Source of the DNA: Bacteroidales bacterium
GTDB taxonomy: Bacteria > Bacteroidota > Bacteroidia > Bacteroidales > UBA1402
DNA: 64,000 nt
Direction: 5' to 3'
Assembly (NCBI GenBank): GCA_017464285.1
Contig: JAFUDT010000013.1
Span: forward strand, 138,962 to 202,961
Of the stretch, positions 2,639 to 55,174 are shown one piece after another. A program made the translations under genes and the position numbers. Below the pieces are notes generated by a model. The model made no database searches and had not been told where the DNA came from. It saw nothing but the letters and a program-made list of their open reading frames with translations. Within the stretch, counting starts at the first letter, position 1. Every line of letters starts with the position of its first letter.

Positions 2639-3955
2639 TTATGACTTATATCGTATCCATTTCCACAAATCTTTGTAGGTGACCTTCTTGCCGTACATCA
2701 GAATGCCGGTGCGGTAGATTTTGGCTGCCAGCTTGACGCAGAGCAGGAAGGTGATAACCAGCAAGGCAAACGAGAGTACGATCTGCCAGAATGGAACCCC
2801 CATCGGCAGTCGGACCATCATCACAATTGGTGAAAAGAAGGGGATGAACGAACTCCAGAAGACCAGGGGACCGTCCGGATTCATGGCTCCATAGATGCCG
2901 ATGTAGAGTGCCAGTATGACAGGAATGGTGATGGCCAGGGTGAATTGCTGGGAATCCTCGTTGTTGTCAACGGCTCCGCCGATGGCGGCAAAGAGCGAGG
3001 CGTAAAGCAGATATCCGCCCAGGAAGAACAGGATGAACCAGATGATGAGGCTCGTCCAGTTGAAGGACTGGATAATCTGGATGCCGTCAAGAGCCTCCTG
3101 GCTGAGGTTGACGTTCATTGTCTCGCCGGCCTGCGGCAGATTGGCTGACATGAGCGTGTCCATCGGAAGTCCGACAGCCGACAGGCCGACGGCGCTGAGC
3201 AGCAAGATGAGCAGTACCCAGAGAATGAACTGGGTGAGCCCGACCAGGGCAATGCCGACAATCTTGCCCATCATCAGCTGGAAGGGCTTGACCGAAGAGA
3301 CGATGATCTCGACGATGCGGCTGGACTTTTCCTCCACCACACCGTTCATGACCATACTGCCGTATGCAAAAATGAAAATATAGATCAGCATGGTCGCTAC
3401 CATGCCGATGACCATCGAGATCTCGGAGGAAGTCTTCACTTCCTGCCCGTCGGCCTTGTCAGACCACAGGATATTTTCCGTCCTGACGGTCGGATAGACT
3501 TCTTTCAAAATCTGTGCCAGTTCCGGAATCCGGTAAGAAGAGATCTTGTCTTCGGAAGCCATTTTTTCCAGTTGACTGCGTATTTCGCTGCTCAGTTCCA
3601 TGGGAATCTGCCGGGTGGCATAGATCCTGACCTGTCCCGTGCTGTCGGCAAGATTGCCGCGTATCGACAGCCAGGCGTAGAAATCTTCGCGTTTTTCCGC
3701 GGGCAGGGAGGAGATGTCTTCCCCGATAGCGACAAACTGCCAGCTCTTGCTGTCCTGCAGGCGGCTGACATATTGTCCGCTCTCGTCGTTGACGGCGATG
3801 AGCCGGGTCTTGCCGCTTTTGACTGTGGACAGCAGCAGGGGCACCATGATAAGTGCCACCATGAGCAGCGGCGTGAGGAAGGTCATGATAATGAAAGATT
3901 TTTTGCGGACCCTCGACAGATATTCCCTTTGTATAATAATGGAGAGTTTGTTCAT
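2639..3955 (-). CDS. ABC-2 type exporter permease (NatB-like topology)
   Basis: 438 aa. One N-terminal TM, a large soluble loop, then about 5 hydrophobic helices in the C-terminal half. Lies 12 nt downstream of the ABC ATPase gene. Confidence 0.82.
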   Translation of the reverse strand: MNKLSIIIQREYLSRVRKKSFIIMTFLTPLLMVALIMVPLLLSTVKSGKTRLIAVNDESGQYVSRLQDSKSWQFVAIGEDISSLPAEKREDFYAWLSIRGNLADSTGQVRIYATRQIPMELSSEIRSQLEKMASEDKISSYRIPELAQILKEVYPTVRTENILWSDKADGQEVKTSSEISMVIGMVATMLIYIFIFAYGSMVMNGVVEEKSSRIVEIIVSSVKPFQLMMGKIVGIALVGLTQFILWVLLILLLSAVGLSAVGLPMDTLMSANLPQAGETMNVNLSQEALDGIQIIQSFNWTSLIIWFILFFLGGYLLYASLFAAIGGAVDNNEDSQQFTLAITIPVILALYIGIYGAMNPDGPLVFWSSFIPFFSPIVMMVRLPMGVPFWQIVLSFALLVITFLLCVKLAAKIYRTGILMYGKKVTYKDLWKWIRYKS

Positions 3956-49570: not shown

Positions 49571-49602
49571 AGAACGTGGACGGTTGTGTCCACGTTCTTT
49601 TT
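49571..49602 (+). terminator. intrinsic terminator after the higA remnant
   Basis: 11-bp stem agaacgtggac / gtccacgttct with loop ggttgt, followed by tttt. Confidence 0.7.
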
Positions 49603-49633: not shown

Positions 49634-49837
49634 CCGCCCGTAAAAGTATTGCGTATGTGGTCTATTAAAGATGAAGTTATTTTTTTCAATGATATCGTCC
49701 TGGATCCATTTATGGGAAGTGGTACAACTGCGATAGCCGCATTGAAGAACCGGCGGAAATATATCGGGTATGAGATATCGGAGGAATATGTGAAGATTGC
49801 CAATAATCGTATCGCTAACGTGGGAGCCTTGTTATAG
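49634..49837 (+). pseudogene. C-terminal fragment of a beta-class amino (N6-A/N4-C) DNA methyltransferase
   Basis: The frame opens after TAG 49631. It reads PPVKVLRMWSIKDEVIFFNDIVLDPFMGSGTTAIAALKNRRKYIGYEISEEYVKIANNRI. This holds the AdoMet motif I (DPFMGSGTT) and tail only. The catalytic (D/S)PP(Y/F/H) part is absent. Confidence 0.75.
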
Positions 49838-50822: not shown

Positions 50823-50951
50823 GTTCTTGTGTAAAATCCTCTGCGCTATGTCAATGACTATGCTGTCTGTTTTCAGGGTGCAACCGTAAAGGTAATAAAT
50901 AATTCCGAAGAAAGGCGGTTTTGCCGAATAATCAAAAAAAACGGGAAAATG

Positions 50952-50982
50952 TTTGCGGGGGGAAAAATGTTCTATATCTTTG
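50952..50982 (+). promoter_or_regulatory. candidate Bacteroides-type promoter for the leader/aromatic operon
   Basis: TTTG (50952..50955), 19 nt, then TAtcTTTG (50975..50982). The first AUG downstream is the leader ORF at 51005. Confidence 0.5.
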
Positions 50983-51004
50983 CCCCCGATTTATCCGGAC
51001 AGTG

Positions 51005-51064
51005 ATGAACAGTTTTACTTTTGCATACTTCTATTACGGCTTTTACTTTAGCTTCGACAGTTAA
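51005..51064 (+). CDS. 19-codon Phe/Tyr-rich leader peptide (candidate attenuation leader)
   Basis: ATG AAC AGT TTT ACT TTT GCA TAC TTC TAT TAC GGC TTT TAC TTT AGC TTC GAC AGT TAA translates to MNSFTFAYFYYGFYFSFDS*. It has 6 Phe and 4 Tyr in 19 residues. It lies between a promoter-like element and a terminator, directly upstream of aromatic amino-acid genes. Confidence 0.7.
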   Translation: MNSFTFAYFYYGFYFSFDS

Positions 51065-51120
51065 GGGCAGGTCGTCTTGTATGTGAGAGTTCCGAGAAAA
51101 CGATAACACGAAATATGAGG

Positions 51121-51149
51121 TCCCGCCCAGACAAGGCGGGATTTTTTTT
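51121..51149 (+). terminator. intrinsic terminator (attenuator) between the leader ORF and the aminotransferase gene
   Basis: Stem tcccgcc / ggcggga with loop cagacaa, followed by T8 (51142..51149). It ends 15 nt before the ATG at 51165. Confidence 0.8.
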
Positions 51150-51164
51150 AGACAACCAGAGAAT

Positions 51165-52391
51165 ATGGGAGACCAGAGATTGAATCCAGACAGCGGCGCC
51201 AAAGGCGGGGAAGCACCCTTGGCCGGCATCCGTCCGGCCGAACGCCTGCAGGAACTGAGCGAATATTACTTCTCGCGCAAACTGCGCGAAATCGCCCGAC
51301 GCAACGAGCAGGGCCAGGACATCATCAGCCTGGGTATCGGCAGTCCCGATTGCCCGCCCAGTGAGGCTGCCATCGCTGTCTTGTGCGAGCAGGCCCGGCG
51401 CAGCGATACGCACGGCTATCAGCCTAACAACGGTACAAAAGAACTCAGACAGGCCTTTGCCGGCTGGTATGACCGCTGGTATGGCATCCGTCTGGACCCG
51501 GAGCGGGAAATCCTGCCTCTGATGGGTTCCAAGGAAGGGGTGCTGCATGTATCGATGGCTTTCCTGAATCCTGGTGACGGAGTGCTGATCCCCAATCCGG
51601 GCTATCCGACCTACCGGGCTGTGAGTAAATTGCTTCAGGCACGCATCGTTGAATATGATCTGGACGAGAACCGCGGCTGGTGGCCCGATTTCGAAGCCTT
51701 GGAAGCCGGCGACCTGAGCGGTGTGAAACTGATGTGGGTCAACTATCCCAACATGCCGACCGGTGCACCGGCCAGCCGTGAACTGTTCGAGGAGCTTGTC
51801 GCCTTCGGCCGCCGTCATGGGATCGTTATCGTACATGACAATCCTTACAGCTTTATCCTGAACGAGCATCCGCTGAGCATCCTCTCGGTCGAGGGAGCGA
51901 GAGACATTGCCATCGAGCTCAACTCGATGAGCAAAGCCCACAACATGCCAGGCTGGCGTCTGGGCATGCTGGCCGCCAATCCCGAGTTCATGTCCTGGAT
52001 CATGAAGGTCATCACCAATATCGAGTCGGGGCAGTTCCGCCCCATGCAACTGGCGGCAGTGCGCGCCTTGCAGGCAGACAAAAGCTGGTATGACGGGATG
52101 AATGCCGTCTATCGCCGGCGCAGAGAACTGGCCGAAGCCATCATGACAGAGTTGGGTTGCCGCTATGATCCGCGTCAGGCGGGAATGTTCCTGTGGGGAC
52201 GTATCCCCGATGACTGCCAGAGTGCCGAGAGCCTATCCGATCGGGTGCTCGACCTGGCCAGGGTTTTTGTCACTCCAGGCTTTATTTTCGGGAGTCGGGG
52301 AGAGCGTTATCTGCGCCTGTCGCTCTGCTGCTCGGAAGAAAAACTCTCGGAGGCACTCAAGCGTATCCGTGAGGCCTTGAAGAGGGGGTAA
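51165..52391 (+). CDS. class I/II PLP-dependent aminotransferase (aromatic/prephenate aminotransferase by context)
   Basis: 408 aa. PLP-lysine context NSMSKAHNMPGWRLG, plus NYPNMPTG. First enzyme gene of the operon with DAHP synthase/CM and prephenate dehydrogenase. Confidence 0.88.
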   Translation: MGDQRLNPDSGAKGGEAPLAGIRPAERLQELSEYYFSRKLREIARRNEQGQDIISLGIGSPDCPPSEAAIAVLCEQARRSDTHGYQPNNGTKELRQAFAGWYDRWYGIRLDPEREILPLMGSKEGVLHVSMAFLNPGDGVLIPNPGYPTYRAVSKLLQARIVEYDLDENRGWWPDFEALEAGDLSGVKLMWVNYPNMPTGAPASRELFEELVAFGRRHGIVIVHDNPYSFILNEHPLSILSVEGARDIAIELNSMSKAHNMPGWRLGMLAANPEFMSWIMKVITNIESGQFRPMQLAAVRALQADKSWYDGMNAVYRRRRELAEAIMTELGCRYDPRQAGMFLWGRIPDDCQSAESLSDRVLDLARVFVTPGFIFGSRGERYLRLSLCCSEEKLSEALKRIREALKRG

Positions 52392-52441: not shown

Positions 52442-53521
52442 ATGTCAGACATTAAATTCAACAGAGAACTGCTGCCGGGGCTGGATCTGAGCCGTCCGAT
52501 GGTGATTTCAGGACCCTGCAGCGCTGAAACAGAGGAACAAGTAATGACCACTGCCCGTCAGCTGGCAGCGATGGGTGTCAAGATATTCCGGGCCGGCATC
52601 TGGAAGCCGCGTACCCGGCCGGGTGCCTTCGAGGGAGTTGGGGCGGAAGGTTTGTCCTGGCTCAAGCGTGTCAAGCGAGAGACGGGTATGGCCGTCTCTA
52701 CCGAGGTGGCTTCGGCCCAGCATGTCTACAGTGCCCTGAAGGCCGGCGTGGATATGCTCTGGATAGGAGCCCGCACTTCGGTCAATCCCTTTCTGATGCA
52801 GGAAATCGCCGAATCCCTGCAGGGGGTCGATGTCCCTGTCCTGGTGAAAAATCCGGTCAATCCCGACCTGGATCTGTGGACCGGGGCCATCGAACGGCTG
52901 GCCAAGTCGGGTCTGGACAAAATAGGTATCATACACCGTGGTTTCAGCGCCGGCGACAAAACCATCTACCGCAATCATCCCAAATGGCAGGTCCCCATTG
53001 AACTGCACCGCCGTTTCCCCGAACTCCCGATGTTCTGTGATCCCAGTCACATGGGCGGCCGTCGGGAGCTGATTGCTCCTCTTTCGCAGCAGGCCATGGA
53101 TCTCGGTTTTGACGGACTGTTCATCGAGACGCACTGCGACCCGGATAAGGCCTGGAGCGACGCTGCGCAGCAGATAACCCCCGAAGTGCTCAAGCTGATT
53201 CTCTCGACGCTGGTCATCCGTGACGGAGGTAAGCAGCACCTGTCCAAGCTGGCCGAATACCGTACCAGCATCGACGAACTTGACGACAAGCTGGTCGAAC
53301 TGCTGGGCAAGCGTATGGAAGTCTGCCGCGAAATCGGCTGTTTCAAGCGGGACAATAATATGCAGGTGCTGCAGGCCGGCCGCTACAACGAGATCATGGT
53401 CAAACGTCAGCAGCTGGCCCAGTCCATGGGCATCGGGGAAGACTGTGTCCAGAAGATTTTCGAGGCCATCCACGAGGAGTCGGTCCACCAGCAAATGGAA
53501 ATAGTCAACGGAACCAAATAA
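52442..53521 (+). CDS. bifunctional 3-deoxy-7-phosphoheptulonate (DAHP) synthase / chorismate mutase
   Basis: 359 aa. N-terminal type I-beta DAHPS/KDO8PS-like barrel (GPCSAE, FRAGIWKPRT, CDPSH). C-terminal AroQ chorismate mutase helix bundle (IDELDDKLVELLGKRMEVCREIGCFK). Confidence 0.92.
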   Translation: MSDIKFNRELLPGLDLSRPMVISGPCSAETEEQVMTTARQLAAMGVKIFRAGIWKPRTRPGAFEGVGAEGLSWLKRVKRETGMAVSTEVASAQHVYSALKAGVDMLWIGARTSVNPFLMQEIAESLQGVDVPVLVKNPVNPDLDLWTGAIERLAKSGLDKIGIIHRGFSAGDKTIYRNHPKWQVPIELHRRFPELPMFCDPSHMGGRRELIAPLSQQAMDLGFDGLFIETHCDPDKAWSDAAQQITPEVLKLILSTLVIRDGGKQHLSKLAEYRTSIDELDDKLVELLGKRMEVCREIGCFKRDNNMQVLQAGRYNEIMVKRQQLAQSMGIGEDCVQKIFEAIHEESVHQQMEIVNGTK

Positions 53522-53530
53522 CTGAGAACT

Positions 53531-54304
53531 ATGCGTATAGCTATCCTTGGAGCTGGGAAAATGGGCTCCTTCTTTGCCCGCGTGCTCTGTCTGCAGCACG
53601 AAGTGGCGCTTTACGATGCAGACGCATCCCGCCTGGAGGGCTTGGGTTATATCCATCCGCTGCATCAGCTGGAGGAAATCTCCGGTTTTCAGCCCGAGCT
53701 GCTAATTAACGCCGTGACGCTTAAATTCACCTTGGAAGCCTTCTCCCAGGTGCTGCCCTTGCTGCCGGCCGACTGCGTTATCAGTGATATAGCCAGTGTT
53801 AAGACAGGTCTGTCGGACTACTACCGGCAAAGCGGTTTCCGCTATGTCTCTTCTCATCCTATGTTCGGCCCCACTTTTGCCAATCTGGAAAAACTCTCCT
53901 CGGAAAATGCCATTGTCATCACCGAAGGCGACGAGCAGGGCAGGGCCTTTTTCAGGGACCTGTATCTGTCCCTGCATCTGAATCTCTATGAGTACAGTTT
54001 TCAGGAACACGACAGGACGGCCGCCTATTCGCTGTCCATACCTTTTGTCTCGACACTGGTCTTTTCGGCTGTCATGAAACACCAGGATGCTCCCGGTACG
54101 ACTTTCAAGAAACACCTGGACATCGCCAAGGGACTGATGAGCGAAGACGACTACCTGCTGCAGGAGATCCTCTTCAATCCGGAAACACCTGCCCAGATCA
54201 ACCAGATCTGCATCGAACTGCTCACCTTGCAGCAGATTATCCGCGACCGCAATGCCTCGGATATGAAAAACTATCTCAATAAGATACGGAAGAATTTGGA
54301 ATAG
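53531..54304 (+). CDS. tyrA: prephenate dehydrogenase
   Basis: 257 aa. Rossmann start MRIAILGAGKMGSFFA. SHPMFGP motif. Confidence 0.88.
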   Translation: MRIAILGAGKMGSFFARVLCLQHEVALYDADASRLEGLGYIHPLHQLEEISGFQPELLINAVTLKFTLEAFSQVLPLLPADCVISDIASVKTGLSDYYRQSGFRYVSSHPMFGPTFANLEKLSSENAIVITEGDEQGRAFFRDLYLSLHLNLYEYSFQEHDRTAAYSLSIPFVSTLVFSAVMKHQDAPGTTFKKHLDIAKGLMSEDDYLLQEILFNPETPAQINQICIELLTLQQIIRDRNASDMKNYLNKIRKNLE

Positions 54305-54427
54305 CCGCCCGAAAGCCTTATTTTCGCACTTTCATGAGATTTGAGGCATGAAACATGCCCTCCCGGCCGGGCTGTCTTCGGAAGGCCGGGCTGTGAATGA
54401 ATCCGGACAGTTGAATGTGAGTGCCAT

Positions 54428-55174
54428 ATGAGATTTTTAGGACTGATTCCCGCCAGATACGCTTCAACCCGTTTTCCGGGGAAGCCCCTGGCCGACATCG
54501 GCGGCAAGCCGATGATCCGCAGAGTGTATGAACAGGTGTGCGGTTGCCTGGACGCGGTGTGCGTGGCGACAGACGATGAGCGTATTTTCAAGGCTGTCGA
54601 AGATTTCGGCGGCAGGGTCGTGATGACCTCCGAGGCTCACCGCAGCGGCACGGACCGCTGTGCTGAGGCCATGGAAAAGTTGCCCGGCGATTTTGACGTC
54701 ATTATCAATATTCAGGGGGACGAACCCTTTGTCCGTCCCTCTCAGATTGCTCAGCTGAAAGCCTGCTTTGATTCTCCGCAGACAGAGATTGCCACACTGG
54801 TAAGGGCTTTTCGCCCGGAAGAAGGACTGGAGGCCCTGATGAATCCCAATTCGCCAAAGGTGGTGCTCAACAGCCGGGGAGAGGCTATGTATTTCAGCCG
54901 CTCGGTGATTCCTTTCCTGCGCCGCCTTCCACAGGAGGAGTGGCTGCAGACTCATGTCTTCTACAAGCATATCGGTATCTATGCTTATCGGCGAGACGTG
55001 CTCTCCCGTCTGGCGGCCCTGCCTCAGACTCCGCTCGAACAGGCCGAATCGCTGGAGCAGTTGCGCTGGATTGAGAGCGGCTACCGTATCCGCGTGGCGC
55101 TGACCGAAAGTGAGAACCTGGCAGTCGACACCCCCGAGGATCTGCAGCGAATATTGGCCAGCGGCCTGCTGTAA
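54428..55174 (+). CDS. kdsB: 3-deoxy-manno-octulosonate cytidylyltransferase (CMP-KDO synthetase)
   Basis: MRFLGLIPARYASTRFPGKPLADIGGKPMI, and NIQGDEPF. Confidence 0.95.
   Translation: MRFLGLIPARYASTRFPGKPLADIGGKPMIRRVYEQVCGCLDAVCVATDDERIFKAVEDFGGRVVMTSEAHRSGTDRCAEAMEKLPGDFDVIINIQGDEPFVRPSQIAQLKACFDSPQTEIATLVRAFRPEEGLEALMNPNSPKVVLNSRGEAMYFSRSVIPFLRRLPQEEWLQTHVFYKHIGIYAYRRDVLSRLAALPQTPLEQAESLEQLRWIESGYRIRVALTESENLAVDTPEDLQRILASGLL

Follow-up and report, generated by a model that had tools for sequence, protein, structure and literature searches.

A candidate leader-peptide attenuator sensing phenylalanine and tyrosine upstream of the aromatic amino-acid operon in Bacteroidales

Upstream of an aromatic amino-acid operon on the Bacteroidales contig JAFUDT010000013.1, a short open reading frame (ORF) crowded with Phe and Tyr codons is followed by a terminator hairpin and a T tract. 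We analyzed this leader region within the 64-kb stretch of DNA that contains it (the window; positions are counted from its first base). The sequence and the fold models together indicate, with a probability of about 0.85, that the element is a classical ribosome-mediated transcription attenuator of the operon, sensing charged tRNA-Phe and charged tRNA-Tyr together. This reading is carried by the observed anatomy of the element, its conservation in related loci, covariation in both the terminator and the antiterminator, and folding in silico that depends on the position of the ribosome.

The human gut is dominated by Bacteroidales, whose aromatic amino-acid metabolism supplies metabolites of relevance to the host. 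The RNA-level regulation catalogued for this order comprises little beyond cobalamin and thiamine pyrophosphate (TPP) riboswitches (PMC3766115). A conserved attenuator would provide a concrete and testable answer to how Phe/Tyr synthesis is controlled in these bacteria.

Leader ORF, promoter and terminator in the window

The features of the element in the window are as follows; A2 is the family alignment described below.

50952..50955, + strand: TTTG, −33-like box of a Bacteroides-type promoter, read from the sequence, with a 19-nucleotide (nt) spacer to the −7 box
50975..50982, + strand: −7 box TATCTTTG (consensus TAnnTTTG), likewise read from the sequence, with 22 nt from the end of the box to the leader ATG
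51005..51064, + strand: leader ORF MNSFTFAYFYYGFYFSFDS, 19 codons plus TAA (ATG at 51005, TAA at 51062-51064), with homologous leaders in relatives
51014..51055, + strand: putative regulatory codon run, codons 4-17, with 6 Phe codons (4 UUU, 2 UUC) and 4 Tyr codons (3 UAC, 1 UAU)
51065..51071, + strand: GGGCAGG, antiterminator strand (region 2 core), abutting the stop codon and reaching about 51091 in the folds; A2 columns 79-85
51121..51127, + strand: UCCCGCC, terminator 5' arm (region 3), A2 columns 154-166; bases 51122-51128 are the antiterminator partner
51135..51141, + strand: GGCGGGA, terminator 3' arm (region 4), part of the RNAalifold consensus helix of the family
51142..51149, + strand: T8 tract, predicted 3' end of the attenuated transcript

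An earlier reading of this DNA made from the sequence alone (the sequence-only reading) had described an unlisted 19-codon ORF with Phe or Tyr at 10 codons. Our count of MNSFTFAYFYYGFYFSFDS agreed with this (6 Phe and 4 Tyr), compared with about 3.1% Phe and 2.6% Tyr in the operon proteins. Across the six frames of the window, the leader was the single case of a stop-free 10-amino-acid stretch with at least eight Phe or Tyr residues (F/Y). When the same criterion was applied to the six frames of 863,535 bases of related loci, 60 stretches were found at the leader position and 4 elsewhere, one of which was a second leader. These counts indicate that the F/Y density of the leader is not due to chance. 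A scan of the window for further codon-run leaders with terminators gave no convincing second case.

Both boxes of the TTTG-N19-TAtcTTTG promoter that had been proposed in front of the aminotransferase gene were recovered when the boxes were derived again. Transcription would start at about 50989-50993, and the attenuated transcript, ending in the T8 tract, is predicted to be about 155-160 nt long. On the predicted transcript the leader is the first ORF and lies upstream of the biosynthetic operon.

The proposed 7-bp GC stem and T8 tract (51121..51149) stood in part: the stem and the T8 tract are present, but the stem is not entirely GC, being composed of six G-C pairs and one U-A pair (−15.5 to −16.4 kcal/mol) with the loop CAGACAA between the arms. 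The gene upstream of the leader is a divergent alpha/beta hydrolase, and the hairpin is therefore not its terminator. GGGCAGG was confirmed to pair with CCCGCCC (51122-51128) at six of seven positions, with one A.C mismatch, as had been suggested for a candidate antiterminator. This pairing is mutually exclusive with the terminator, and it is in register with a conserved, covarying strand of the family alignment. Another antiterminator candidate, CGUCUUGU (51073-80) with ACAAGGCG (51131-38, terminator loop and 3' arm), was absent from the constrained folds and from the family alignment, and was rejected.

As a separate observation on terminator prediction, the consensus terminator scan listed the hairpin at 51121-51141 on the minus strand only (8 pairs including G.U, with a weak T tail), while dedicated scans recovered it on the plus strand with T8. 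The consensus scan can thus miss real plus-strand terminators.

Conservation across Bacteroidales

Eighty Bacteroidales genome loci were retrieved by protein alignment of the fused DAHP synthase/chorismate mutase (DAHPS/CM). An F/Y-rich ORF (16-37 codons, about 20% Phe and about 20% Tyr) preceded the first operon gene by 60-140 nt in 68 of these loci, belonging to Prevotella, Parabacteroides, Alistipes, Paludibacter, Dysgonomonas, Muribaculaceae and other lineages; the peptides MNHFSFTYYFFYFYFSRIKAGICM, MKLYASFYYFYFYFARNCEAGSCV and MKTLFAYFYFYFYFSR are examples. Approximately 65 of the 68 loci had a hairpin and a T-run between the leader and the gene. TAnnTTTG was present no more than 90 nt upstream of the leader ATG in 65 of the 68, with a median of 28 nt from the end of the box to the ATG (22 nt in the window), and most of these 65 loci also had TTTG at a spacing like that in the window.

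To score the window independently, we used a covariance model (R1) that was built from 40 related loci with the window left out. The model matched the window at 51014-51150 over model positions 1-143 (62.8 bits, E about 2e-12), and this was the sole match in the 64 kb. In metagenomes, about 59 independent loci had enough upstream sequence, and in 56 of them R1 found the full-length element ahead of the operon. Over the two independent collections, the layout of promoter, leader and terminator was kept in more than 120 loci. The sequence-only reading had named conservation of the F/Y run and the terminator in orthologous operons as a check on its proposal, and both were retained in the genome and metagenome loci, as was the promoter. 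Two close relatives, L082 and L085, the latter being the one further close relative that the metagenome scan added, carried the leaders MNSFTFAYFYYGYYFNLEG and MNSFTFAYFYYGFYFSKR, respectively, whose N-terminus is nearly shared with that of the window leader (MNSFTFAYFYYG...).

The leaders of the family contained on average 4.6 Phe and 4.6 Tyr residues each. In the 68-locus leaders (window included), UUU accounted for 83% of the Phe codons, compared with 36% in the operon genes, whereas the share of UAC among the Tyr codons was nearly unchanged (63% in leaders and 55% in operon genes). The excess of UUU may reflect selection on decoding of the leader (slow decoding), or it may reflect U-richness or another sequence constraint of the RNA.

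One locus, L005, carried two F/Y leader-attenuators in tandem before prephenate dehydratase (3672-3955; R1 scores of 76 and 17 bits). The first leader, MKHCFSYTYFFYFYFTQK, was accompanied by a CCCGUU-type terminator, and the second, MKHSFSRFYGFYFFYF..., by a GGUGGG/CCCACC antiterminator-terminator pair.

Covariation of the terminator and the antiterminator

The family alignment A2 consisted of 64 sequences, and covariation counts were assessed by shuffles and by slid partners, a procedure that ignores phylogeny. The terminator helix, which was also recovered as the RNAalifold consensus, was paired in 89.3% of cells, with 127 compensatory cells. Covariation with the 5' arm of the terminator was seen in the strand at or immediately past the end of the leader, giving the pairs AGCGGG/CCCGCU, GACAGG/CCUGUC, GGCAGG/CCUGCC, AACGGG/CCCGUU, AGCGAG/CUCGCU and GGUGGG/CCCACC. 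For this antiterminator, 72.5% of cells were paired, compared with 37-45% when the partner was slid. There were 69 double-change cells versus 33.9 in shuffles, and the observed covariation score was reached by none of 500 shuffles. Two core pairs were kept in 64 of 64 and 62 of 64 sequences, through 10 and 13 GC-to-AU switches, respectively. The antiterminator was replicated in an independent metagenome alignment, which was fitted by a model that knew the terminator only (81.3% paired versus 33-47% with slid partners; 52 double-change cells versus 24.4; 0 of 500 shuffles).

The motif GAAGCGGGA on this strand was read as CEAG in Prevotella-type leaders and as VKRE in Bacteroidaceae-type leaders, and in short leaders it was placed past the stop codon. 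Because it is read in differing frames or lies outside the ORF, the constraint is on the RNA and not on the peptide, which points to an antiterminator at the RNA level. The core UACUUUUACUUU was more than 90% conserved in nucleotide sequence in A2, including the wobble positions.

The peptide tails …CEAGSCV, …VKAGICM and …VKREVVC were found to be one RNA motif (GAAGCGGGA/GGCAGGA) in different frames (A2 columns 70-100, window 51056-51086). Such tails are a trap when these small ORFs are clustered as families of small proteins.

Folding of the nascent RNA and ribosome position

The following additional helix strands were predicted in the window.

51017..51028, + strand: 5' strand of the outer anti-antiterminator helix (region 1), leader codons 5-8, with 51079-51090 as its partner in the minimum free energy fold
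51036..51066, + strand: inner helices that, in the absence of a stalled ribosome, would sequester the antiterminator strand (51036-42 with 51069-75; 51046-53 with 51059-66)
51079..51090, + strand: 3' strand of the outer anti-antiterminator helix; when a ribosome is stalled, it belongs to the extended antiterminator and pairs with 51099-51120

The nascent RNA 50990-51134, in which the 3' arm of the terminator is not yet made, was folded with the ribosome assumed to cover −12 to +15 relative to the P site. The antiterminator had a probability of 0.0 when the RNA was free of ribosomes or carried one at the stop codon; when the A site was placed on F/Y codons 8-15, the probability was 0.97-1.0. 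L082 behaved identically. Among the 64 family members, the antiterminator probability exceeded 0.5 in all 64 when the ribosome was stalled midway through the F/Y run, and was below 0.2 in 57 when it stood at the stop codon. Folding of the region had been put forward earlier as the way to look for mutually exclusive terminator and antiterminator structures; both were found, and in the nascent folds the choice between them was set by the position of the ribosome. The equally early comparison with the classical layout of pheL is thus supported by folding, covariation and conservation.

The equivalent of the outer helix formed in L082 (1617-1628 with 1678-1689) and could be written for L085 (UUUUGCAUAC with GUGUGCAAAA). 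The pairing of the hairpin 51046-53/51059-66 was retained in L082 despite changes on both sides (CUUUAGCU/AGUUAAGG versus CUUUAACC/GGUUAGGG). In Prevotella-type leaders, the register of the anti-antiterminator was shifted by 4 (ACGCA:UGCGU). As far as the models go, the step that the family seems to conserve is that a ribosome terminating translation occludes the antiterminator strand.

We propose the following mechanism. Transcription would begin a few bases past the TAnnTTTG box, with the 19-codon leader as the first ORF. With ample Phe and Tyr, the ribosome would reach the UAA at 51062-51064 and its footprint would cover GGGCAGG; behind the ribosome or after its release, the leader codons would re-pair with 51069-51090, leaving the 5' arm of the terminator free, and the hairpin 51121-51141 would form and halt the polymerase at T8. 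When either Phe or Tyr is scarce, the ribosome would stall on the F/Y codons at 51014-51055, melting the leader helices and exposing GGGCAGG, which would pair with CCCGCCC before the 3' arm is synthesized. With the terminator blocked, the polymerase would read through into the aminotransferase, DAHPS/CM and prephenate dehydrogenase genes.

Several points weigh against attenuation of this kind. The full-length window leader folded at equilibrium, with or without masks, always gave the terminator, and the model therefore needs kinetic, co-transcriptional competition with a ribosome that closely trails the polymerase, although this equilibrium outcome is also the one expected of a kinetically controlled switch. 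Bacteroidota start translation without Shine-Dalgarno pairing, and we know of no demonstration of ribosome-polymerase coupling in this phylum. In 7 of the 64 relatives, the ORF is long and its stop codon lies so far past the antiterminator strand that a ribosome terminating there would leave this strand uncovered. Ribosome-free RNA is predicted to terminate in the window but to form the antiterminator, and so to read through, in most relatives (median 0.92). Taken family-wide in one register (A2 columns 26-36:93-104), the anti-antiterminator helix was 63% paired versus 59% at slide −2. The window antiterminator itself, with A.C and U.U mismatches, is below the family norm in strength; L082 carries the same A.C-mismatched GGGCAGG:CCCGCCC, unlike L085, in which the antiterminator is perfect (GCGGGAU:AUCCCGC). 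To these are added the assumed footprint and the disregard of phylogeny in the covariation counts. Finally, we infer the transcription start, translation of the leader, stalling, ribosome-polymerase coupling and the response to Phe/Tyr in vivo, and this too counts on the debit side.

Alternative explanations

The element might instead be a terminator/antiterminator riboregulator whose switch is something other than a stalled ribosome, for example an RNA-binding protein, a small-molecule ligand or uncharged tRNA, the F/Y ORF being a by-product of a U-rich (UUUUAC)n element. The conserved core UACUUUUACUUU, wobble positions included, could be a binding site for RNA or protein, and the purine-rich segment separating the antiterminator strand from the terminator might base-pair with the U-rich run. 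However, in nearly all leader loci the repeat is preceded, 3-10 codons upstream, by an in-frame ATG (by GTG/TTG in three), the promoter puts the ATG about 20 nt from the start of the transcript, and the stop codon is at or beside the antiterminator strand. A bare nucleotide repeat would equally be read as F-T or L-L, and outside the core Phe and Tyr interchange freely. No Rfam family matches, T-box included, and ribosome position alone suffices to switch the fold in silico. We therefore regard such a riboregulator as unlikely.

A still less probable explanation is that the ORF encodes a functional hydrophobic micro-peptide or loads ribosomes for re-initiation, and that the hairpin is a leaky terminator or an RNA-stability element. 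F/Y-rich peptides would be membrane-active, and Korolev et al. 2016 (PMC4833913) propose that many leader genes act through re-initiation to enhance translation of the genes that follow. Against this, the distance from stop to start is 100 nt in the window and 60-140 nt in relatives, compared with 10-14 nt for re-initiation (PMC4833913). At the C-termini, conservation is confined to the RNA motif and does not extend to the peptide sequence, and neither a protein-family match nor an annotation was found for the peptides. Neither version gives the covarying antiterminator a role.

A functionless coincidence, in which an AT-rich intergenic ORF happens to lie next to an unrelated terminator, is effectively refuted by the unique F/Y stretch in 64 kb, the layout in more than 120 loci and the R1 match to the window, even though short ORFs and hairpins are common and the shuffle z-score of the whole-region window fold was only −2.26.

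The regulated operon and its neighbors

The genes downstream of the attenuator candidate are as follows.

51165..52391, + strand: class I/II aminotransferase, 408 amino acids, PF00155, ATG at 51165
52442..53521, + strand: fused DAHPS/CM, from Pfam and NCBIfam scans
53531..54304, + strand: prephenate dehydrogenase, from Pfam and NCBIfam scans

These assignments bear out the sequence-only reading, in which the regulatory codons were said to match the downstream products. The same gene order was found in L001, L082 and L085. In most relatives, the first gene of the operon is prephenate dehydratase (PF00800), followed by the aminotransferase and DAHPS/CM. Prephenate dehydratase is missing from the locus in the window (50823-52391) and in L082 (1500-2973), and L085 (690-2965; DAHPS/CM 93% identical) retains it after the leader. 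A tblastn search for prephenate dehydratase across the 64-kb window found no homolog. The window lineage seems to have lost or moved this gene of the Phe branch, yet its leader retains six Phe codons.

Prephenate dehydrogenase is separated by a 123-nt gap (54305-54427) from kdsB (54428-55174), which is followed by an ABC ATPase gene; the consensus scan found no plus-strand terminator in the gap. Further upstream, a strong 12-bp hairpin with a T-run (49571-49598) adjoins a 62-codon ORF (49649-49837), whose product matches just a fragment of N6/N4 DNA methyltransferase (PF01555) and which is probably a gene remnant.

Implications

The leader ORFs are unannotated, and a family of F/Y leaders would therefore fill a gap in Rfam and in genome annotation. 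Leader-peptide attenuation would also be less restricted to Proteobacteria and Actinobacteria than surveys state (PMC2965389). The family would offer a natural test of transcription-translation coupling in a phylum that does without Shine-Dalgarno sequences, and a compact Phe/Tyr-responsive part for Bacteroides engineering.

Taken jointly, the results allow a wider interpretation that we put forward tentatively, giving it slightly less than even odds. There may be a large, uncatalogued family of dual Phe and Tyr attenuators across gut and environmental Bacteroidales, whose near-universality, if true, would imply close ribosome-polymerase coupling in a phylum without Shine-Dalgarno-directed initiation. 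Individual lineages may have remodelled the device, as by loss of the dehydratase and a weaker antiterminator in the window and by tandem attenuators in L005.

Comparison with known systems

Searches of catalogues were mostly negative. With Rfam 15 at permissive E-values, the window region gave chance-level matches only, the best inside the element being anti-hemB at 13.2 bits, over the terminator only. In five relatives, Rfam 15 gave no match at gathering score over the leader and one sub-threshold overlap (ncr1015, 39.8 bits versus 60; L030 1005-1099). Six family leader peptides matched 0 NCBIfam families at E up to 10, the 19-amino-acid window peptide being too short for this search. By exact look-up in a collection of 15 billion proteins, one of seven leader peptides was present, unnamed. 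A literature search found no description of this Bacteroidales F/Y leader element, nor any Term-seq, Northern-blot or reporter-mutant data on its read-through. The earlier remark that leader-peptide attenuation is rarely annotated in Bacteroidota thus holds for Rfam 15, NCBIfam and the literature searched.

Two comparative studies from the Gelfand and Lyubetsky groups, Vitreschak et al. 2004 (FEMS Microbiol Lett) and Lopatovskaya et al. 2010 (Mol Biol), reportedly describe candidate amino-acid attenuators in Bacteroidetes/Chlorobi. The 2010 paper is cited in PMC4833913. The mechanism proposed here is classical; the family is widespread, dual-specific and absent from the catalogues searched. 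Elsewhere, attenuators of amino-acid operons have been described as essentially gamma-proteobacterial (PMC3766115), or as shown in Proteobacteria and Actinobacteria and none outside (PMC2965389). Some 5' untranslated regions of B. thetaiotaomicron were said, in a general remark, to contain small ORFs "reminiscent of leader peptides" (PMC7366714). The Lactococcus Leu/Phe leader (RF01743) and the Firmicute His leaders, which were found by comparative genomics (PMC2864571; PMC2965389), are cases of leader-peptide attenuation outside Proteobacteria. The Bacteroidales element differs from them in phylum and codon content, is unrelated in sequence and has no Rfam match.

One close parallel is E. coli pheL, which resembles the window element in having a short, Phe-codon-rich leader ORF and mutually exclusive antiterminator and terminator before biosynthesis genes of the Phe branch. 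The likeness to pheA lies in prephenate dehydratase, which is the first regulated gene in most Bacteroidales relatives and is not found in the window operon. Unlike pheA, the Bacteroidales operon further includes genes for the Tyr branch and for the first enzyme of the pathway. The pheL leader is specific for Phe, whereas the Bacteroidales leaders mix Phe and Tyr about equally. There is no homology to pheL in sequence or structure (no match in Rfam 15), and the Bacteroidales element has a TTTG/TAnnTTTG promoter and no Shine-Dalgarno sequence.

The window also matches the four-region model of E. coli and Salmonella trpL and hisL, with the leader codons as region 1, the strand at the stop codon as region 2, and the terminator as regions 3 and 4. 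As in trpL and hisL, a ribosome at the stop codon blocks 2:3 pairing and a stall on the regulatory codons allows it, in silico in the window. The 1:2 helix is clear only in the lineage of the window and is weak family-wide, and the Bacteroidales element would sense two amino acids, where trpL and hisL each sense one.

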